Shown here in pieces: positions 8,479 through 48,574 of a stretch of DNA of 64,000 nucleotides. Each line of letters opens with the position of its first letter. Position 1 is the first letter of the stretch. Position numbers and translations under genes: made by a program. The notes beneath the pieces are model-generated. The model saw nothing but the letters and a program-made list of their open reading frames with translations, made no database searches and was not told where the DNA came from. The stretch is from a virus: positions 1 through 64,000 of IMG/VR virus record IMGVR_UViG_3300011113_000664; one strand, written 5' to 3'.

Positions 8479-8552
8479 GTTCTCTTAGCTCAATCGGTTA
8501 GAGCAACTGACTCATAATCAGTAGGTTACAGGTTCAATTCCTGTAGGGAACA
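8479..8552 (+). tRNA. tRNA with CAT anticodon (Ile2-like or Met)
   Basis: Cloverleaf: acceptor GTTCTCT/AGGGAAC, anticodon arm ACTGA-CTCATAA-TCAGT, T arm ACAGG-TTCAATT-CCTGT; TATATTTG promoter at 8459. Confidence 0.92.
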
Positions 8553-8568
8553 CTAAATTTCATACATA

Positions 8569-9795: not shown

Positions 9796-10674
9796 ATGAA
9801 AAAATTATTAGCAATCTTTTTAATAGGTTTATTTCTTTTGTCCTGTAAAAAAGAAGATTCAATAACACCTATAAATCAACAAGATACAACTAAACAAGTT
9901 GATATTAGTAATGCAAGAATTGCAACTGATAATTTGTTAATGGGTAATCCAAGTAATGCAAGTACATTGTCTACAACAAATTATTTAATGCAGAAAATGA
10001 CTTACACATTATCATATAATTCTACACAAGGTAAACCTAATTGGGTATCTTGGCATTTAGATAATACTTGGTTAGGTTCAGCAACAAGATGTGATTGTTT
10101 TGCATCAGATGTATTATTACCATCAGGTGTTTATAGAGTATCATCTTCATCATATACTAATTCAGGATTTGATAGAGGTCATAATTGCCCATCAGGTGAT
10201 AGAACATTCTCTTCAACTGATAATAGAGAAACATTTTTAATGACTAATATGATGCCACAAGCACCAACAAATAATCAACAGACTTGGGAAAACTTAGAAT
10301 CATATTGTAGAAAATTAGTTTCACAAGGGAGTGAATGTTATATTATTTGTGGTTCATATGGACAAGGTGGAACAGGTTCAAAAGGTGGAACAACATTAAC
10401 TATTGATGCAGGTAGAGTTACAGTTCCAAATAGAATATGGAAAGTAGTATTAGTATTACCAAATGGAACAAATGATATTTCAAGAGTAACAACATCAACA
10501 AGAGTTATTGCAGTTAACACACCTAATATTAATTCAATTAATACTAATTGGGGTGTATATAGAACATCAGTTGATGCTATTGAAACTGCAACAGGTTATG
10601 ATATACTTTCAAGTCTTCCCGATGCTATTGAAGCAACATTAGAATCCGTAGTAGATAATGGTCCAACACAATAA
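9796..10674 (+). CDS. Lipoprotein DNA/RNA non-specific endonuclease (NucA/EndA family)
   Basis: Lipobox LLSC; DRGH catalytic motif; TFLMTNMMPQ..NNQQTWENLE; VPNRIWKVV. Confidence 0.9.
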   Translation: MKKLLAIFLIGLFLLSCKKEDSITPINQQDTTKQVDISNARIATDNLLMGNPSNASTLSTTNYLMQKMTYTLSYNSTQGKPNWVSWHLDNTWLGSATRCDCFASDVLLPSGVYRVSSSSYTNSGFDRGHNCPSGDRTFSSTDNRETFLMTNMMPQAPTNNQQTWENLESYCRKLVSQGSECYIICGSYGQGGTGSKGGTTLTIDAGRVTVPNRIWKVVLVLPNGTNDISRVTTSTRVIAVNTPNINSINTNWGVYRTSVDAIETATGYDILSSLPDAIEATLESVVDNGPTQ

Positions 10675-31009: not shown

Positions 31010-31074
31010 AAAAAAAAGTATGGGCGAAGTACAGGCGATTAACCTTCCCTTGAGTCGGGCTTCTGTATTGCTAC
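31010..31074 (-). ncRNA. Putative small RNA, copy 1
   Basis: Reversed promoter 31109, no ORF, conserved core GAAGCCCGACWCAAGGGAAGGTTAATCGC, U run. Confidence 0.7.
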
Positions 31075-31183
31075 ATCTTAATATATCAAATGATGGGTCA
31101 TTTCTTACATAAAAAATAAAATAAAATTTCTGTAAGATTTGGTAAGTGGTTTGATATATTAAGGTACAACAAACATATAAGAT

Positions 31184-31495
31184 ATGGTAGCACACATTTT
31201 TGAGTCAAACAACAGATGGGATTTAATCGTTGAGACTCCCAAAGGTAATTATCTTTTCATCTTAGGAGAGGTTTCTAAGTTTAGGGAAAAGTATAGGTTA
31301 GATGACCAATGGCTTATTCGTGAAGTCGGGTCACTTGACTTTTCGCCATCAGTTGAAACTGAAGGAGAGTGGAAAGGTTGTAATCTACCTAATAAGAGAA
31401 CCAAGAAGTTAGGTGAGTTGGTTTGTCGAATACTTGGTATCAATGGTCGAAATGTGGCAAAGACCGATGGTGTTTTTGCCTTTGCTGTAAAGTAA
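31184..31495 (+). CDS. Hypothetical early protein
   Basis: Promoter 31131; paralog of 27414..27701. Confidence 0.7.
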   Translation: MVAHIFESNNRWDLIVETPKGNYLFILGEVSKFREKYRLDDQWLIREVGSLDFSPSVETEGEWKGCNLPNKRTKKLGELVCRILGINGRNVAKTDGVFAFAVK

Positions 31496-31581
31496 AATTA
31501 AGGGAGTAGAAATACTCCCTTTTTTTGTAAGATTTCAATTCTAATTTGATATATTATAGTGTAACAAAACAACAAAATAAA

Positions 31582-31821
31582 ATGATTAAAGAAATGTTAT
31601 TATCTCTGCCGAAAGATTTGCAAAAGGAAATTCTTGCAGATGCTTGTAGAAAAAGTTTTGGGTTATTCTTTGAATTTGCAAAAATCTTATTGGATGCTCC
31701 TATTTCAGAAGGTGGTATGTCTACCGAAGAAGTTGAAGAAATCCACAAGACAACCTTTCAAGAAAAATTGAATCCATCAAATAGAATCGTTTGTTCAAAT
31801 AGTTTTAGTACAACAAAATAA
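31582..31821 (+). CDS. Hypothetical early protein
   Basis: Start reassigned to ATG 31582; promoter 31526. Confidence 0.65.
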   Translation: MIKEMLLSLPKDLQKEILADACRKSFGLFFEFAKILLDAPISEGGMSTEEVEEIHKTTFQEKLNPSNRIVCSNSFSTTK

Positions 31822-31822
31822 T

Positions 31823-31948
31823 ATGGAAGATTTCTTTAAGCAACAAAAAAGGCTAAATATGCTCTTTGATGTTATCGTGGTATTAGGCTTTGCCTTTACA
31901 CTATTCGTAATCATTTGTCGGTTACTAATTTTAGCAATTGGGTTATGA
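31823..31948 (+). CDS. Small membrane protein (41 aa)
   Basis: Hand-translated MEDFFKQQKRLNMLFDVIVVLGF...; ATGA overlap with the next gene. Confidence 0.5.
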   Translation: MEDFFKQQKRLNMLFDVIVVLGFAFTLFVIICRLLILAIGL

Positions 31949-32163
31949 AAAATATAGATTGGGTTAATGCAGGATTATTTCTCCTTGTTGCAATATGTTT
32001 TAGTTATATTCTTTACAGCATCATTGAATATCATCGTTCAAAAGATGAACCTCATGAAGGTTATCAAAGGACAATTGAGTATGTTGGCTTTGATGGTAAA
32101 AAACATCAGGCTATTGTACTAAAAACAGGAACAAATAATTGGGTATTGGTAGAAAAGAAATAA
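31945..32163 (+). CDS. Small membrane-anchored protein
   Basis: Start reassigned to ATG 31945; N-terminal hydrophobic helix. Confidence 0.6.
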   Translation: MKNIDWVNAGLFLLVAICFSYILYSIIEYHRSKDEPHEGYQRTIEYVGFDGKKHQAIVLKTGTNNWVLVEKK

Positions 32164-32205
32164 AATAATTTGTAAGATTTGACATTGTATTTGATATATT
32201 AAGGT

Positions 32206-32421
32206 ATGAAGACAAGAACACTAATAGCAATAGCAATCATCGGGATGATGACCTCTTGCACAGAAAACACAACCAAAATGGTTATTGCTCATCGTGTGGA
32301 TGGCAATGATACCACTACCTTGCACAAGGTTAAGGTGGATAGGGAGTTTAAAGCAGGTGAGATTGTTTACCCTATCAATCTTATGAATAAATTCAAGATT
32401 GTTAGAGAATGCAGAAGATAA
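32206..32421 (+). CDS. Small putative lipoprotein (leaderless)
   Basis: MKTRTLIAIAIIGMMTSC; ATG at +1 of promoter 32171. Confidence 0.65.
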   Translation: MKTRTLIAIAIIGMMTSCTENTTKMVIAHRVDGNDTTTLHKVKVDREFKAGEIVYPINLMNKFKIVRECRR

Positions 32422-32756
32422 TGTTTGTTGCGGTTCTATGTTTGTTTGCCTCATCTGTTATGGGGCAAACTAACTACAAGACTATAATGCGTTTGAAAAA
32501 AGATTCAATCCGTAAGGAAATAAATCTTCATTTGCAGAAAGCAAAGGTATTGGAAGGTACTTCTAAGGTTTTACAAGTCGCTGCTTTAGCTTCAGTAGTT
32601 GCCTCTTATCATATCTATAATAAAGAAGGTAATGGTAAACCAATGATTTTCATTCCTTTGACCATAGGTTTATCTGCTTTTGCAACTGATATTTTGGCTG
32701 AAAGGCAATACCAAAAGGCACAAGAAAAAAGAATTAAATTTATTTGTAAGTTTTAA
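32409..32756 (+). CDS. Secreted/membrane hypothetical protein
   Basis: Signal peptide plus two hydrophobic segments. Confidence 0.6.
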   Translation: MQKIMFVAVLCLFASSVMGQTNYKTIMRLKKDSIRKEINLHLQKAKVLEGTSKVLQVAALASVVASYHIYNKEGNGKPMIFIPLTIGLSAFATDILAERQYQKAQEKRIKFICKF

Positions 32757-32779
32757 TTACTAATTTGATATATTAAGGT

Positions 32780-32938
32780 ATGAGAACTTCAGCAACAACA
32801 ACACCCATTAACTATGGGAAAATAAAAAGAGATTTGTATCTGCGTGATACCAATGGTGATTCAAGGTTTACCACTAAGGTTGGTAAGGATGCCAAAAAGT
32901 ATAACAGAAACGCAGAGAAGCGAAAGGATTGGGATTGA
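32780..32938 (+). CDS. Small basic protein (52 aa, leaderless)
   Basis: Hand-translated MRTSATTTPINYGKIKRDLYLRD...KKYNRNAEKRKDWD; ATG at +1 of promoter 32745. Confidence 0.7.
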   Translation: MRTSATTTPINYGKIKRDLYLRDTNGDSRFTTKVGKDAKKYNRNAEKRKDWD

Positions 32939-33066
32939 GTGTTTATTTTGGTGTTTATTTTTCATGAGAAACCCTATCGGTCATATCGGTAGGGTTTTTT
33001 ATTTTAAAATAAATTGTAAGATTCGGTAAGCGGTTTGATATATTAAGGTATAACAAATAAACACTT

Positions 33067-33486
33067 ATGAAAAACTTAGTTCCAACAGAAGCACTTCTTT
33101 CTCTCCTTCAGGGCGATACTCAGTCAAATGGTGGAGAGTTTACCGCACTATCAAAAAGAAGCGGTAAAGACTTTACCTACAAGGTAAGTCGCAAGCAATT
33201 CAACGACAGATGGTACACCCACATCAAGGTGGAAACCAACTACCTTGATTGGCAATACCTTGGTTATTTTAAAGATGGCAAGGTTGTTCGCAAAGGTCAG
33301 GAAGTTGATTCACCTTCAGCAAAAGGCATTGCGTGGATTCTGCACAACATCCAACTTGGTAATCATCAGGCGGTTACAGACCAAGTTGAGGTGATGCACT
33401 TAGGCAAATGTCTAAGGTGCGGAAGACCTCTAACTGATTCAGATTCAATCAGTATTGGATTTGGGCCAATTTGCAGAGCAAAGTAA
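33067..33486 (+). CDS. DUF6011-like zinc-finger protein
   Basis: CLRCGRPLTDSDSISIGFGPIC; promoter 33015. Confidence 0.8.
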   Translation: MKNLVPTEALLSLLQGDTQSNGGEFTALSKRSGKDFTYKVSRKQFNDRWYTHIKVETNYLDWQYLGYFKDGKVVRKGQEVDSPSAKGIAWILHNIQLGNHQAVTDQVEVMHLGKCLRCGRPLTDSDSISIGFGPICRAK

Positions 33487-33628
33487 CAATCTTTAAAGGG
33501 GAAGCATAATGTTTCCCCTTTTTATTGATATTGTTGATAACATTGCGTACACATTGTAGATTGTTTTTTAAAATAAAATGTAAGATTGTCTTACTCGTTT
33601 GATATATTAAGGTATAATAAATAACACT

Positions 33629-33997
33629 ATGAAAAAGACATATGTAATAATTCCGACAGAGTGCAATTCAAACGATGCTTTGCTGCCTCTTTTTAAGAAA
33701 GAAAATCTTACCTATTCTCCTTGGCTGTATTTGCATGGGGAGTTGGAAAACGAATCTGTTCGCTTCGGTGGATGGGATAAGTTTAAATGGTTTGGTGATG
33801 AACCCACTAAGGGTGGAATCTTTGATTGCGTGGTTCTCATTGGGGATGACGATGCAAATATCAAAGTGGTTAAATCCATTGCTTATCTTTGGAAAAGCGA
33901 CTTTGGCAAACTCACAGGTCTTGTGGTTGCAGAGGATGACCAAAAGAGTGTTGATTATGCCCACAAGAATTGGGAAGAAAAGGCAACAATGATATGA
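33629..33997 (+). CDS. Hypothetical early protein
   Basis: Promoter 33579. Confidence 0.7.
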   Translation: MKKTYVIIPTECNSNDALLPLFKKENLTYSPWLYLHGELENESVRFGGWDKFKWFGDEPTKGGIFDCVVLIGDDDANIKVVKSIAYLWKSDFGKLTGLVVAEDDQKSVDYAHKNWEEKATMI

Positions 33998-34044
33998 CAA
34001 ATGGGGAAGATTTTCTTCCCCTTTTTTATTTAAAAATTATATAT

Positions 34045-34107
34045 AAAAAAGTATGGACAAGCTACCTGCGATTAACCTTCCCTTGTGTCGGGCTTCTGTA
34101 TTGCTAC
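34045..34107 (-). ncRNA. Putative small RNA, copy 2
   Basis: Reversed promoter 34142; same core; U run. Confidence 0.7.
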
Positions 34108-34218
34108 ATCTTAATATATCAAACCAATAAGCATTTCTTACATAAAAAATAAAATAATATTTCTGTAAGATTCAGTATGTCATTTGATATATTAAGGTAC
34201 AACAAACACGAACAGACT

Positions 34219-34377
34219 ATGAAACAATATCAAGTCGGGATGGTGGTGAGGTTCATCAATCAAGGTGATGACACACCTTACATAGGTAGAATCATCCAAA
34301 TTCGTAAAAACGAAGTTATCGTTTCATACGAAAGGGATGGTTTCAAACTATGGCAAGCCATCAGAGTCACACACTAA
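34219..34377 (+). CDS. Small KOW/SH3-like protein (52 aa)
   Basis: Start reassigned to ATG 34219; YQVGMVVRF..G.I; promoter 34164. Confidence 0.65.
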   Translation: MKQYQVGMVVRFINQGDDTPYIGRIIQIRKNEVIVSYERDGFKLWQAIRVTH

Positions 34378-34480
34378 GGGAGCAGAAATGCTCCCTTTTT
34401 TTTTAAAATAAATTGTAAGATTATCTTACTAATTTGATATATTATAGTGTAACAATTTTAAACTTTTAAACAATAACATT

Positions 34481-34849
34481 ATGACAAAAATTTTCAACGG
34501 CACACCGCACCCAATCAACATCGTAGAGGGTGCAACCTTCAACCCTCAAATCCGCAAATGGGTAGGAGGCCAAGTGGTAAGAGTAATTCCCTCAAACGGA
34601 ATGCTCAATGCCAAAATGAGCGTGGTAGACCTTCCTTCAACCGATGGAATCCCAACCTTTGGGAAATCATTTGAGGGTGTGGATGCCCTTCCCGATGGTT
34701 TTGACATCTTTATCGTATCTGCCCTCTTCTCATCTGCAATGCAGAAAATGGGTGCTGATATGTCAAAAATCTTCACCATCGGTGACCCTGTGATGTCAGA
34801 GGATGGTAACACCTTCGTTGGATGCAGAGGAATCTGCCCTGCTTTCTGA
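34481..34849 (+). CDS. Conserved phage protein (NxTPHxI family)
   Basis: NGTPHPINI, IVS, GC motifs; promoter 34414. Confidence 0.75.
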   Translation: MTKIFNGTPHPINIVEGATFNPQIRKWVGGQVVRVIPSNGMLNAKMSVVDLPSTDGIPTFGKSFEGVDALPDGFDIFIVSALFSSAMQKMGADMSKIFTIGDPVMSEDGNTFVGCRGICPAF

Positions 34850-34975
34850 TACAGAAAAGGATTTAGTTGTTAATATATGGAAACCCTATCGGTTATATCG
34901 GTAGGGTTTTTTTTATTTATTTCTGTAAGATTACCTTACTCATTTGATATATTAAGGTACAACAGATAAACACTT

Positions 34976-35335
34976 ATGAAAAAGCAATTCGTTATTACAC
35001 TTTCCGATGGAGGGCAAATGTGGGATTTCAAATCCAAATTAGTCATCTTGTCTGCTGATTTTATTGAACTCAGAAGCACTATGGCTGAGTGCGATTGGAG
35101 GCACAAGGCTATGGCTTGCAAGGCTGAATTCTTTACCACCAAAGCAGGTAGGGAAGCAATTCGCCTTGGTGTCGGTCATTCCCACAAGGTGCTGATTTCC
35201 ACCTTTAGTGGGTCAAAATCCTTTCGTAATTGGAATGAAAGGAAAGACCCTACTGCCCTTTTCGCTCACGCACTTGGTATATCCAATGGCGGTGGTTGTT
35301 GGGCAGAAATAACACTTAAAATCAATCAGCAATGA
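34976..35335 (+). CDS. Hypothetical early protein
   Basis: Promoter 34924. Confidence 0.7.
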   Translation: MKKQFVITLSDGGQMWDFKSKLVILSADFIELRSTMAECDWRHKAMACKAEFFTTKAGREAIRLGVGHSHKVLISTFSGSKSFRNWNERKDPTALFAHALGISNGGGCWAEITLKINQQ

Positions 35336-35412
35336 TTGGCTTTTTTTAAAATAAATTGTAAGATTACCTTACTCATTTGATATATTAAGGTACAACAAAA
35401 CCAATAAACAAA

Positions 35413-35769
35413 ATGGAAAATTTCAAAACAGCAATCTACGGAGGCGCAAGTACAATTGTAACAAAACTTAACGAAAAGGTAAGGTCAGGTGACAAAAGTT
35501 GGGAATTGGTAAATATTACCAAAGACCCTGAATACTATAACCAATCTTACGAAGTTCGCCACAATGGTGAATTTGTTATCCGAATTGATAGACTTTACGG
35601 ATTCGGTTTCGGGTCTAATGCTTGGTATCCATATCTAAATAAGGTGCAATTTAAGAAATTGGAAGAGTTGGGTGTTCCTGTTGAAGTGCAATTTAATTAT
35701 CGTGGGAAAAGTATGGAAGAGATAAGTGCTGAAATTAGGGCAATACACGAAATTCTTGAAAGAGAATAA
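35413..35769 (+). CDS. Hypothetical early protein
   Basis: Promoter 35357. Confidence 0.7.
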   Translation: MENFKTAIYGGASTIVTKLNEKVRSGDKSWELVNITKDPEYYNQSYEVRHNGEFVIRIDRLYGFGFGSNAWYPYLNKVQFKKLEELGVPVEVQFNYRGKSMEEISAEIRAIHEILERE

Positions 35770-35821
35770 ATTAATTGGGAAGAGAAATCTTCCCTTTTTT
35801 TATTTCAATATTTTTTATTTC

Positions 35822-35886
35822 AGTTTGGGTGAACTCCCTGCGATTAACCTTCCCTTGAGTCGGGCTTCTGCAACAATCTTTGCTAC
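35822..35886 (-). ncRNA. Putative small RNA, copy 3
   Basis: Reversed promoter 35921; same core; longer 5' hairpin. Confidence 0.7.
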
Positions 35887-35901
35887 ACCCTAATATATCA
35901 A

Positions 35902-36085
35902 ACACAATGTTAAATCTTACAATCTTTTTCAACATTGTCAATACATTCTAATAACATTGTGTATAAACCCACATTGTGTTTACATTGTATATACTTGTCA
36001 AAACACAAACAATGTAAAATAACACACAATACAGAAAGCCATACATTGTCAATACCATTACATTGTCTATCATTCACATTGTCAG
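35902..36085. repeat. Third cluster of ACATTGT motifs
   Basis: About nine copies between divergent promoters 35921 and 36105. Confidence 0.75.
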
Positions 36086-36139
36086 AAATTATTTTAAAAT
36101 AAAATGTAAGATTGTGTATGTAGTTTGATATATTAAGGT

Positions 36140-36373
36140 ATGACACACAGACCATTAAATGTCATTGCCTCCGAGGTTAGGAGGGATTGGCAAAAGGTGA
36201 ACTATGCAGCCAAGCCTTATTTGGATGCAATGAGTTCACTAAACAGCATCAACGATTCCTATGGATGGGATTCGGCAAAGTCAATAGTTTTGTATTTCCT
36301 TGGCAATGCCTCTACTTGGAAGGGAGAGAAGGCAAAGGAGATAAAGGCTGAACTGAAAGCCATGTGCAAGTAA
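36140..36373 (+). CDS. Conserved small phage protein (leaderless)
   Basis: AAKPYLDAM..Y..DSA..IVLYFL.NA..WKGE motif; ATG at +1 of promoter 36105. Confidence 0.8.
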   Translation: MTHRPLNVIASEVRRDWQKVNYAAKPYLDAMSSLNSINDSYGWDSAKSIVLYFLGNASTWKGEKAKEIKAELKAMCK

Positions 36374-36424
36374 GTTTGAAAAAGGCAGTCGGGAGTGGCT
36401 GCTTTTTTTTATTTTTAATTTTTT

Positions 36425-36478
36425 AAAAAAGTATGGACAAGCTACCTGCGATTAACCTTCCCTTGTGTCGGGCTTCTT
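36425..36478 (-). ncRNA. Putative small RNA, copy 4 (no adjacent promoter)
   Basis: Identical to copy 2 over about 50 nt but lacks the 5' hairpin and promoter. Confidence 0.5.
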
Positions 36479-36499
36479 CTTTTTTATTAAAAAAAGAAT

Positions 36500-36610
36500 A
36501 AAAAAAAATCCCTCTGAATTTCAAAGGGATTTTCTAATAAAAATTTATGAATGAAAAACGAAAAACGACCAAGAAACCATACCTGCAAAGCAACTATGCT
36601 TTCCCTCTCT
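36500..36610 (-). ncRNA. Putative small RNA, divergent variant
   Basis: Reversed promoter 36645 to terminator 36500-36535; no credible ORF; contains AGGGAA...GCAGGTA. Confidence 0.55.
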
Positions 36611-36969
36611 GCTATACTATATCAAATGACTTACCAAATCTTACAAAAAAATAAAATAAATTTTGATCCCTAAACCAAGGCCAGGTGAACCAGGGTTTTT
36701 GACTTTTCCAAATTTATTTTCAAATAACCTTACGCAAGATTTATTTTTTCTAATCCTTTGGTTTTTTGAATTATTTTCTGCATGGCAATTTTTGGGTTTT
36801 TCAGAATAGAGTTTTTGATATTTCCAAATTTATTTTCTACCAAGTTTTTTGGTAACCTTACCAAAATTATTAGAATGCGTTTTCAGCCTCATAACATTGC
36901 GTATAAGACACGATGTGCCTTTTTGGTACTCTGATATCAAAAAAAATAGTTATGCGAATACAAAGGAAG

Positions 36970-37237
36970 TCGCTGATTTTCAATGAGTTATGTCTGATCT
37001 CATAACATAGCTTATCTTATTGGAAATCAATCACTTACGGCTTAGATGTAAGATATGGGTAAGAAAAAATTAAAAATAAATTTTTTTGTTTGATTTGTTT
37101 TCTTTTATACACGCATACACATACGCACACACCACGCACCACATATACTGATTCCTGGGGCAAGTCGCTGGTTTTCAGTCAGTTACAAAATCTTACAAAA
37201 TTTTTGAAATTTTTTCTCGCTGATTATCAGTCAGTTA
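36970..37237 (+). promoter_or_regulatory. Cluster of IHF-like sites
   Basis: AATCAA-TCAC-TTA at 37025 matches WATCAANNNNTTR; TCGCTGRTTWTCARTSAGTTA at 36970, 37165, 37217. Confidence 0.55.
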
Positions 37238-37268
37238 TGATTTATTTTAAATTTATTTTTGTGTGAGA

Positions 37269-37301
37269 TTTGGTTGGTATTACTTCTTATGCCGATATTT
37301 G
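37269..37301 (+). promoter_or_regulatory. Bacteroidota housekeeping-type promoter for the sigma-like gene
   Basis: TTTG-N21-GATATTTG-N4-ATG; one mismatch to TAnnTTTG; same N4-ATG geometry as at 8767, 11889, 46773, 49647 and 54483. Confidence 0.6.
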
Positions 37302-37305
37302 CTGC

Positions 37306-38130
37306 ATGAAAAATCAAACCCCCTCCTCCGCAGTTACCGCAGGGATGCCTGTAACTGCCTCTGTTTCAACTACTTCAGTTGTTTCTGCACCTAAAAAGGT
37401 GCGGAAAGTTTCAGTCGCTAAATTCGTAAAGCGACTTGACCTTTGCCCGATGACACCAAAGGGCTTTGCCAAAAGGGCAAAGACAATGGGCAAAGTTATC
37501 TCCTTTATCATTACACGGCAGTTTCAGTATGCCGTTGATGGTAACAGAGTTACCGCCAAAGATGCCTCCGATTTCGTTCAGGATGGTATGTTGTCAATCC
37601 TGAATGGCAATCAGGTCGATATGTCTAATTTCACCTATGCAGGTGAGAAAATGACACAAGGGAAATTCTTTTCCCTTTGGCTGAAAGCCTCCTTTCAGCA
37701 GTGTCAGCGCAATGACCAATTCGGTAGAATTACACGGAAGTGTAAGGTTACCGGAAAGCGTGAGGTGGTTGGAAAAATTGCGGTTGGCAGCATTGCCACT
37801 ACCGACAATGAGGGTGCAATTTCTATCTCCAATGAGGTGGAAATCAAAGCACTCAAAAGGGGTGCTTCTGATAGCACTACCTATGCTCCGCTGAAAAAGG
37901 TGGAGCGCAAAATGATTGCGTTCTTCAATGAGGCCACCACCAAAGCCGACAAGCGGTTTTGGGCTAACGGCTTGAAAATGTTGCACATTGAGTGCAGCAA
38001 ACTTCCGGCAAAGGAAGCCTGTAAGCTACATGGCTTTGAGCCATCCGCTTACTATGTGATGAAAAAGCGGATGTTGGCTGATGACCGGATGCAGGTCTTC
38101 AGTAGGCTTCGGGAATTGGGGCAAATCTAA
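37306..38130 (+). CDS. Divergent ECF-type RNA polymerase sigma factor-like protein
   Basis: Start at ATG 37306. Region-2-like AKDASDFVQDGMLSIL and KFFSLWLKASFQQCQRND; region-4 HTH-like LPAKEACKLHGFEPSAYYVMKKRM. Recognised by eye only. Confidence 0.55.
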   Translation: MKNQTPSSAVTAGMPVTASVSTTSVVSAPKKVRKVSVAKFVKRLDLCPMTPKGFAKRAKTMGKVISFIITRQFQYAVDGNRVTAKDASDFVQDGMLSILNGNQVDMSNFTYAGEKMTQGKFFSLWLKASFQQCQRNDQFGRITRKCKVTGKREVVGKIAVGSIATTDNEGAISISNEVEIKALKRGASDSTTYAPLKKVERKMIAFFNEATTKADKRFWANGLKMLHIECSKLPAKEACKLHGFEPSAYYVMKKRMLADDRMQVFSRLRELGQI

Positions 38131-43999: not shown

Positions 44000-44818
44000 T
44001 TAATCAATAGAGCCATTTAGTTTTAATGCTCTAGCCATTCTTGTCATTCCTATACCACCACCAAATCTTTCAAAGAAATCATGAGAGAAGAAATCTTCCA
44101 ATTCTTTTTCTACTCTATCTTTACCGAAGAGTTCAAATAATTTTTGTGAGTATGCTCCACCTTCAATAGTATAGAACATTTCTCTCATTTTTTCAACATC
44201 ACAGCTTCTTTCGGCAGAGCCAATGGTTTCTTGACCATAAAGGATAACATCAACTTTATTAAAGATACCATTATCGTTATGTTGCATATTCCAAAATGGG
44301 TTTGTTCTTAAAGGAAAGTTTTGTAAAGATACAACAGGACCTTTTTCTTCCCACATTCTTGTTTCATGTTCGTTTTCAAGAATTTCAACTCCACCATATT
44401 CTTGACAAACATCATCATAGTTTACTTCGATTGGTTTATCAAATCCAAGATGCTCTAGTAGTTCAGCTTCAAGTTGAAGCATATCTTTCATTGTGCCTTT
44501 GCTTTCAAATTCAAACATAGGGAAGATAAGTTCATGTCTACCTTGAATTGGATTTTTTTCTTGCCTATATGAAGTTGATACGCAAAAACATCCTTCCCAA
44601 GATGGATTAGTTAATAATCTTTCTTCCAAAATCATTTGTCCTGTTTGCGGAAGAGGCCAAATTTGATTTACATATTCAAATTGGGTTATTGAGTGAGGGT
44701 TTTCACATGCTGCTAATATTGATAGGCAAGATTGTGTTGGTACTTCAATGAAGTTTTTCTTTTGAAAAAATGTTCTTAGTTTGTTTACCGATTGATGGTA
44801 TTGATATGCGTCTTTCAT
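44000..44818 (-). CDS. Stand-alone class II (Asp/Asn/Lys) aminoacyl-tRNA synthetase catalytic-domain homolog
   Basis: Motif 1 FIEVPT, motif 2 YRQE..GRH..F.MFEFE, ETIGSAER, motif 3 GGGIGMTR; no anticodon-binding domain. Confidence 0.8.
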   Translation of the reverse strand: MKDAYQYHQSVNKLRTFFQKKNFIEVPTQSCLSILAACENPHSITQFEYVNQIWPLPQTGQMILEERLLTNPSWEGCFCVSTSYRQEKNPIQGRHELIFPMFEFESKGTMKDMLQLEAELLEHLGFDKPIEVNYDDVCQEYGGVEILENEHETRMWEEKGPVVSLQNFPLRTNPFWNMQHNDNGIFNKVDVILYGQETIGSAERSCDVEKMREMFYTIEGGAYSQKLFELFGKDRVEKELEDFFSHDFFERFGGGIGMTRMARALKLNGSID

Positions 44819-48183: not shown

Positions 48184-48274
48184 TTGGTAGGATGGGATTT
48201 GAACCCATATCATTGTTGAGCCTCTTTTCTAAAGTTTTTTTGAGTCAACCGCTTCGCCATTCAGCCACCTACCA
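48184..48274 (-). tRNA. tRNA-like gene with a 25 nt anticodon loop
   Basis: Acceptor TGGTAGG/CCTACCA, T arm ATGGG-TTCAAAT-CCCAT, anticodon stem GTTGA/TCAAC. Confidence 0.7.
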
Positions 48275-48276
48275 AT

Positions 48277-48386
48277 TTGCTTGTCTTTCCAAGCGGTCAT
48301 CTGTTTTCCCCTATTAGCCCAAATCATCAAAGGGGTATGAAATGGATTTTGTTTGGTGCTTTCGCTTTCCACAGAAAACCAACACA
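48277..48386 (-). ncRNA. Putative structured RNA within the tRNA cluster
   Basis: GGTTTTCTGT/ACAGATGACC stem, GC-GAAA-GC, CCCCT/AGGGG, 3' GCTTG-GAAAGA-CAAGC. Confidence 0.5.
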
Positions 48387-48387
48387 G

Positions 48388-48485
48388 TAGCCTCGCTAGG
48401 AATCGAACCTAGAAGAATTGCTTCTCTCTCCATTCCTCAGAATGGAATGAGAAGGCAATCAGTATATCCATTTACTTACAAGGCC
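48388..48485 (-). tRNA. tRNA-Arg(TCT)-like gene with a 26 nt hairpin insertion in the anticodon loop
   Basis: Acceptor GGCCTTG/CGAGGCT, D arm AGTA/TACT, ATTGC-CTTCT[26 nt]AA-GCAAT, T arm CTAGG-TTCGATT-CCTAG. Confidence 0.75.
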
Positions 48486-48490
48486 ATTAG

Positions 48491-48574
48491 TATCAGGAGA
48501 GGGAGTCGAACCCTCACGGCATTGCTGCCAATGGATTTTAAGTCCATAGTGTCTACCTATTCCACCATCCCGAC
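48491..48574 (-). tRNA. tRNA-Leu(TAA)
   Basis: ATGGA-CTTAAAA-TCCAT anticodon arm, long variable arm GGCA-GCAA-TGCC, GAGGG-TTCGACT-CCCTC; TATATTTG promoter at about 48592. Confidence 0.92.

Follow-up and report, generated by a model that had tools for sequence, protein, structure and literature searches.

We describe a small RNA family present in four copies on the minus strand of a 64,000-nt stretch of viral DNA (hereafter the window; positions 1 to 64,000 of the IMG/VR record IMGVR_UViG_3300011113_000664), and show that its helix-plus-module part is spread across unrelated phage families and two host phyla. The link between this multicopy RNA of Bacteroidota-type phages and an RNA of cultured Gammaproteobacteria phages is new. 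Each unit is best explained, judging from its sequence, as a stand-alone gene for a trans-acting RNA of about 55-65 nt, and we see roughly an even chance that this RNA would work, by its dosage, as a decoy for a conserved host protein that binds RNA or acts in defence.

Four RNA units and their promoters in the window

A 30-nt core is exactly repeated four times on the minus strand of the window (Table 1), against an expected count of 0.00 in 100 shuffles, and no fifth copy was found elsewhere in the whole phage genome (170,056 nt, 27.7% GC). On the plus strand we counted 33 copies of the promoter motif TGTAAG-n14-TTTGATATA, all preceding small genes, and on the minus strand four (31109, 34142, 35921 and 36645), where no open reading frame (ORF) lies behind any of them (0/4). 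Three of these minus-strand promoters are directly upstream of an RNA unit, and the fourth (36645) appears to start a different ORF-less transcript. The motif scan thus bears out the original prediction of four minus-strand copies, three of them with their own ORF-less promoter, and the 5' hairpins, tails and U-runs are also as it described, copy 3 lacking a U-run and possibly ending at a hairpin near 35773-35800. Copy 4 had been called promoterless: it indeed has no adjacent promoter, but it is located downstream of the fourth minus promoter, past a terminator, and the same site and arrangement are kept in three relatives (L078, L084 and L104). The units sit among tiny genes of the host-takeover type. 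A start-stop AUG-UAG is found at the RNA 5' end and likewise behind promoters of protein genes.

The second ORF-less transcript (36540-36612, minus strand), behind the fourth minus promoter, has a small hairpin followed by GCAGGUA. Similar versions exist in L084 and L078 and a more diverged one in L104. The transcript is possibly another small RNA or a degenerate member of the family.

Table 1. Positions of the RNA units, their promoters and related features in the window
Feature	Position	Strand	Details
Promoter of copy 1	31079..31109	-	phage array-type motif
RNA copy 1	31010..31076	-	5' end approximate; P1 31065-31074; core 31035-31064; tail to 31018; U-run 31010-31017; 66.8 bits
Promoter of copy 2	34112..34142	-	array-type motif
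RNA copy 2	34045..34109	-	P1; core 34068-34097; linker 34093-34097; U-run; 73.8 bits
P2 of copy 2	34090-34092 paired with 34080-34082	-	
25-nt module of copy 2	34055-34079	-	
Promoter of copy 3	35891..35921	-	array-type motif
RNA copy 3	35823..35887	-	longer P1 (35870-35886); core 35840-35869; no U-run; 63.7 bits
RNA copy 4	36425..36498	-	core 36448-36477; no adjacent promoter; A/U-rich hairpin replaces P1
Fourth minus promoter, putative ORF-less transcript and terminator	36500..36645	-	promoter 36615-36645; terminator ~36500-36532; upstream of copy 4
Sigma-factor-like ORF	37306..38130	+	274 aa; matches to sigma-70 clusters, no Pfam match

A covarying helix followed by a conserved, weakly paired module

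By comparing 45 copies from the window and its relatives, we could distinguish three parts. First, P1, a variable 5' hairpin near the presumed +1, forms in 45/45 copies despite unrelated sequences; 52 of its 313 pairs are G-U, and the promoter-driven strand usually folds better than the opposite one. Second, P2 consists of 3 bp around a GA-N3-4-AA loop, and all three pairs change two-sidedly, including a full flip to GGR/YCC (21 two-sided cells, a count that includes inherited changes, against 0/500 shuffles), with compensatory changes within subtype A alone too. Third, a 25-nt module, AAGRUKNAUCG-NNN-GKA-RYWYGYCY, follows 3' of P2. Hence, the core that had been described as invariant is identical within the window genome, whereas its P2 varies freely across relatives.

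Within the module, a hairpin of two pairs (G-C and R-U) around UKNA fits all copies, with one-sided support only. An AGAAG:YGYCY closing helix is canonical in 57% with a single compensatory case, and a tail tetraloop hairpin is not above shuffles. The earlier proposal that the tail pairs back to GGGAAG did not hold, as covariation was no better than in shuffled sequences (425-466/500) and GGG is locked in P2; the tail:GGGAAGGU helix was accordingly rejected. The tail does not look like a variable seed on a scaffold either, as had also been suggested: it is constrained to mostly CUUG or UUCG (tetramer counts CUUG 19, UUCG 17 and CACG 3, that is, anticorrelated positions), and no target was found for it. 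The folding energy of the whole molecule is not better than that of shuffles, so that the conserved part probably depends on tertiary contacts or a partner for its shape. Together, conserved positions that are largely unpaired and an overall folding no better than shuffled are what is expected of a protein-bound surface.

The family in Bacteroidota-type phages

Relatives were gathered through a metagenome scan, through the neighbouring DUF932 gene and with looser patterns, which gave 45 distinct copies in 11 phage sequences, with 1-10 copies per sequence (window 4, L042 4, G001 5, L074 4, L078 5, L079 10, L084 4, L102 3, L104 4, G002 1 and G003 1). The metagenome scan with the window core returned a single true relative, L042, whose four copies follow canonical Bacteroidota TAnnTTTG promoters; the other exact-pattern matches were due to chance. 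Also dismissed as chance was a 120-nt-period repeat of two unrelated metagenome contigs (L041 and L052), which has 18 nt in common with the core and lacks the module. Promoters and starts without a Shine-Dalgarno sequence suggest that the host phylum is Bacteroidota; BLAST gave no match to a cultured Bacteroidota phage.

Three subtypes can be told apart: A, the window type; B, with a flipped P2 and a different linker; and C, a single copy, which in G002 is convergent with an A copy. Convergent tail-to-tail pairs of unlike subtypes (A/B, A/C) were noted at L079:4061-4210, L079:11911-12060 and L085:458-625, in two distant phages. The jumbo carriers G002 (178 kb) and G003 (465 kb) are distant from the window phage: only 10 and 29 ORFs of its genome, respectively, have matches in them, and the G003 terminase is 28% identical. 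A few genes are 65-80% identical between the window phage and G002/G003 (window 9796-10674 and 44000-44818; genome 150219 and 162837), a sign of recent exchange between phages that share a host group. The ORF at 44000 is syntenic with a tRNA-synt_2 gene in L081.

We considered that the repeated unit could be a cis element, that is, a DNA site, an origin primer or an insulator against convergent transcription, as might be suggested by the fact that units are mostly antisense to adjacent genes. However, compensatory and G-U pairs are found on one strand, and copies occur in either orientation at dispersed sites, making such a role very unlikely.

The module in cultured Gammaproteobacteria phages

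With one window copy as query, BLAST found an intergenic site without annotation in two cultured phages, Acinetobacter phage ABPH49 and Serratia phage Kashira (E 4e-3). The covariance model that the original prediction had called for, built from related phages (R2, trained on Bacteroidota-phage copies only), detects this site at 42.8 bits in ABPH49 and 41 bits in Kashira with P2 intact, which corresponds to roughly E 1e-5 when scaled to the collection by a rough calibration. The site is preceded by a TTGACA-17-TATTCT promoter and is directed against the adjoining small genes. In both phages, palindromic AT-rich boxes lie downstream of the RNA (L218:3140-3190).

Relatives of the ABPH49-type locus are found in 199-247 records, some of them duplicates. 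This long form is a single-copy RNA of ~100 nt located at a fixed non-coding hub. It has a sigma70 promoter and the same module, a pseudoknot at its 5' end and a P2 that is longer. Its carriers belong to Certrevirus (phiTE, CR3), Seunavirus, Mydovirus, Avunavirus, Henunavirus, Justusliebigvirus (BASEL Bas61), Phapecoctavirus and Aeromonas Plateaulakevirus, and include PVP-SE1; the form thereby spans Vequintavirinae, Stephanstirmvirinae and Plateaulakevirus. In BASEL Bas61 (MZ501063) the RNA lies at about 78300-78400. The long-form structure covaries (30 two-sided cells, 0/500 shuffles). With a weight matrix made from Bacteroidota copies only, long-form modules score 12-40 bits (median 29). A common 24-nt pattern, designed from both groups, gave 21 loci over IMG/VR: 19 have the enterobacterial form, 2 come from a Bacteroidota phage, and none is stray. 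Homology between short and long forms is confined to the P2 base and the 25-nt module, the last 8 nt of which have diverged in phAPEC8. In two Aeromonas-type phages (L230 and L247), the pseudoknot linker carries a ~45-nt insertion and both stems are intact.

No match to known RNA families or to a cellular template

Searching Rfam 15, at gathering and at looser E-value thresholds, gave no covariance-model match at the window copies or in the family, and we found no description of it in the literature. Together with the G-U pairs on the promoter-driven strand and the compensatory helices, this supports the earlier view of a structured multicopy RNA outside known families. A GTDB pattern scan gave 13 matches, none with helix, tail and promoter, and the pattern had 2 matches against 1 control in 401 sampled Bacteroidota genomes. 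Our covariance model gave only two weak, unrelated matches in 151 Bacteroidota genomes, one apparently intragenic and the other apparently at the 3' end of a signal recognition particle RNA. E. coli genomes and plasmids held no meaningful match. In ribosomal RNA (rRNA) operons nothing exceeded shuffles, and rRNA mimicry or antisense was rejected as lying below shuffled maxima; the resemblances considered were to the GTPase centre, h45 and the anti-Shine-Dalgarno. Bacterial and phage Y RNAs come with a Ro60 gene and a tRNA-like domain, and Y RNA was rejected: a Ro60 (TROVE) gene was found in 0/4 phage carriers (controls positive, three of the records incomplete), and ARAGORN and Rfam call nothing tRNA-like at the RNA sites. 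Hairpin, pistol and twister ribozymes were rejected by inspection.

A likeness to CRISPR repeats, trans-activating CRISPR RNA (tracrRNA), ToxI or rRNA is not supported. Pseudo-ToxI of phiTE is a mimic of a type III antitoxin (PMC3475682). Like the family described here, it is a phage non-coding RNA with a proposed dose-dependent action, and phiTE also carries the long form. However, pseudo-ToxI lies at 106.7 kb and consists of tandem repeats similar to ToxI, while the phiTE long form stands alone at 39.7-39.8 kb, as a dispersed unit for which no host template is known. Type III antitoxins are tandem repeats processed to monomers, in contrast to the dispersed single units seen here, and they fold into an H-type pseudoknot, which is not supported in the Bacteroidota form and is present 5' in the enterobacterial form, outside the common module.

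Racrs, rAcrVIA1 and rAcrIIA1 are RNA anti-CRISPRs (bioRxiv 10.64898/2026.06.03.729762) and, as our units, are promoter-driven intergenic phage RNAs, here 60-110 nt long, whose proposed action is to occupy a host protein. That the RNA is an anti-CRISPR, structurally mimicking CRISPR RNA or tracrRNA, could be suggested by its AAG-R-loop-UCG, loosely like the nexus of Bacteroidota II-C tracrRNAs, and by rAcrVIA1 being reported as active with negligible sequence similarity. Against this, the family has no repeat or tracrRNA homology, no single-guide RNA architecture and no identified adjacent acr gene. A Racr is a solitary CRISPR-repeat unit, and Rfam CRISPR-repeat models found no such similarity. 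The ~14 bp repeat:anti-repeat duplex of rAcrIIA1 and its three homologous tracr stem-loops are absent, as are 3' hairpins in general. No model match was found in 30 Cas9 loci, so a tracrRNA mimic was rejected, and the P2 sequence is free to flip. Moreover, the family spans two host groups that, as is generally known, use different CRISPR types. We regard this explanation as the least probable of those considered.

The RNA may still act like pseudo-ToxI or the RNA anti-CRISPRs, though it lacks the tandem-repeat organisation of the former and the repeat or tracrRNA homology of the latter.

A base-pairing small RNA (sRNA), FopS/GibS- or PreS-like, whose module or tail pairs with host or phage messenger RNA (mRNA), is in our view unlikely. 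FopS/GibS are multicopy sRNAs of Bacteroides thetaiotaomicron with one reported phage occurrence, and multicopy genes running from promoter to U-run, with Bacteroidota promoters, are typical of sRNAs in this phylum (PMC11697453). In addition, alternating C/U tail positions could reflect G-U wobble with a G-rich target. But the tail tetramer positions are anticorrelated rather than independently wobbling, complements in the phage genome do not exceed 11-14 nt (rRNA operons were scanned as above, host mRNAs were not), and an mRNA target conserved from Bacteroidota to Enterobacterales is unlikely. Furthermore, FopS is a chromosomal single-stranded seed with a terminator hairpin and is in Rfam, whereas our RNA combines a 5' hairpin with a covarying internal helix, lacks a terminator hairpin and was found in phages only.

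A small-molecule sponge, in which the RNA is an aptamer sequestering a defence signal such as a cyclic dinucleotide, seems quite improbable. The RNA has the junction words GGUKAAUC then GUAG in common with the conserved junction of cyclic di-AMP (ydaO) riboswitches (RF00379), and its high dose, its early position and its broad horizontal spread agree with what is generally known of protein sponges. However, these riboswitches occupy a 5' leader and have closing helices at their two three-way junctions, while our RNA is half the size, has no junction-closing helix and lies outside a 5' leader. No covariance-model match was obtained on eight ydaO loci or in Rfam, and we estimate that the similarity of ~15 bits is within look-elsewhere chance. 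We give a similarly low probability to the RNA being a subunit or cofactor of a phage-encoded protein. In about 200 records of enterobacterial phages the RNA has one copy at a fixed non-coding hub, which would suit such a role. However, no obvious RNA partner is seen among the 10-29 window-genome ORFs matched in the two jumbo carriers (rV5-like phages were not compared), TROVE/Ro60 is absent, and a copy number of up to 10 in Bacteroidota phages speaks for titration.

A proposed decoy for a conserved host protein

An interchangeable cap, a promoter that follows the host, a copy number of 1-10 and mostly unpaired conserved letters fit an RNA that acts in trans through stoichiometric binding of a conserved host partner, and the presence of the RNA in distant jumbo phages and in Vequintavirinae, Stephanstirmvirinae and Plateaulakevirus argues for this partner being host-encoded. 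According to the decoy model, the 5' part would be an interchangeable stabilising cap, formed by a hairpin in Bacteroidota phages and by a pseudoknot in enterobacterial phages, and the short helix with the conserved, weakly paired module would offer the binding surface. The host protein would be conserved in Bacteroidota and Gammaproteobacteria, most likely as an RNA-binding defence effector or an RNA-handling enzyme, and would be titrated stoichiometrically soon after infection, with copy number and subtypes A/B/C setting dose and breadth.

Several points weigh against this model. First, covariation counts are inflated by relatedness and probably reflect a handful of independent events. Second, the pairings considered for the 3' module are tentative. 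Third, the RNA is missing from partial loci of three close relatives (L081, L100 and L101). Fourth, known phage RNA decoys resemble host RNA, and no host template is recognisable here. Finally, transcription, timing and target of the RNA are all inferred.

More tentatively, the portable 25-nt module might neutralise a widespread defence protein or signalling molecule without resembling a host RNA. If true, this would be the RNA equivalent of the sponge and anti-defence proteins of phages, and about 200 records of cultured phages would contain it without annotation. In the few known cases of phage RNA counter-defence, a host RNA is copied. The present family has no recognisable template, is retained in different phage families and host phyla, and in some genomes is amplified up to tenfold. 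What it targets may be a conserved host factor for which attack by RNA has not been described so far. Since the long form is carried by cultured phages of E. coli, Salmonella, Klebsiella and Pectobacterium (e.g., BASEL Bas61 and phiTE), an observation made in uncultured phages becomes testable in lab strains.

Promoter type and timing

The promoter class changes with the host, whereas the module is retained: in relatives, the RNA lies behind host-type promoters (TAnnTTTG in L042, sigma70 in the Gammaproteobacteria phages), in contrast to the phage-type promoters of the window genome. The product of the sigma-factor-like ORF at 37306 probably reads the array promoters. The promoter type of the window may depend on this ORF, so that the RNA may be delayed-early in the window genome. 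Thus, regarding the high-dose early decoy first proposed, a decoy appears to fit best, but the term early is uncertain for the window genome. Across relatives, identity of the 37306 ORF homologues falls from 63% to 27% and the array promoter consensus shifts in step; more distant relatives use host TAnnTTTG promoters, and the G001 fragment has no match to this ORF.

Other non-coding features

Other promoter-driven ORF-less units were noted in relatives, some of them without the family RNA, at L081:11758, L100:11969, L101:9793, L102:9590 and L104:6703 (all on the plus strand); L081, L100 and L101 have in common an ORF-less unit with a purine-rich hairpin terminator. In the window, positions 36650-37300 form an AT-rich non-coding block with repeats at 36967, 37162 and 37214, a GT-rich tract and host-type -33 elements. 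This block is 76-81% conserved in relatives and is a candidate origin or control hub. Transfer RNA genes lie at 48184-48574 (minus strand) and 8479-8553 (plus strand), four according to Rfam and just two according to ARAGORN.

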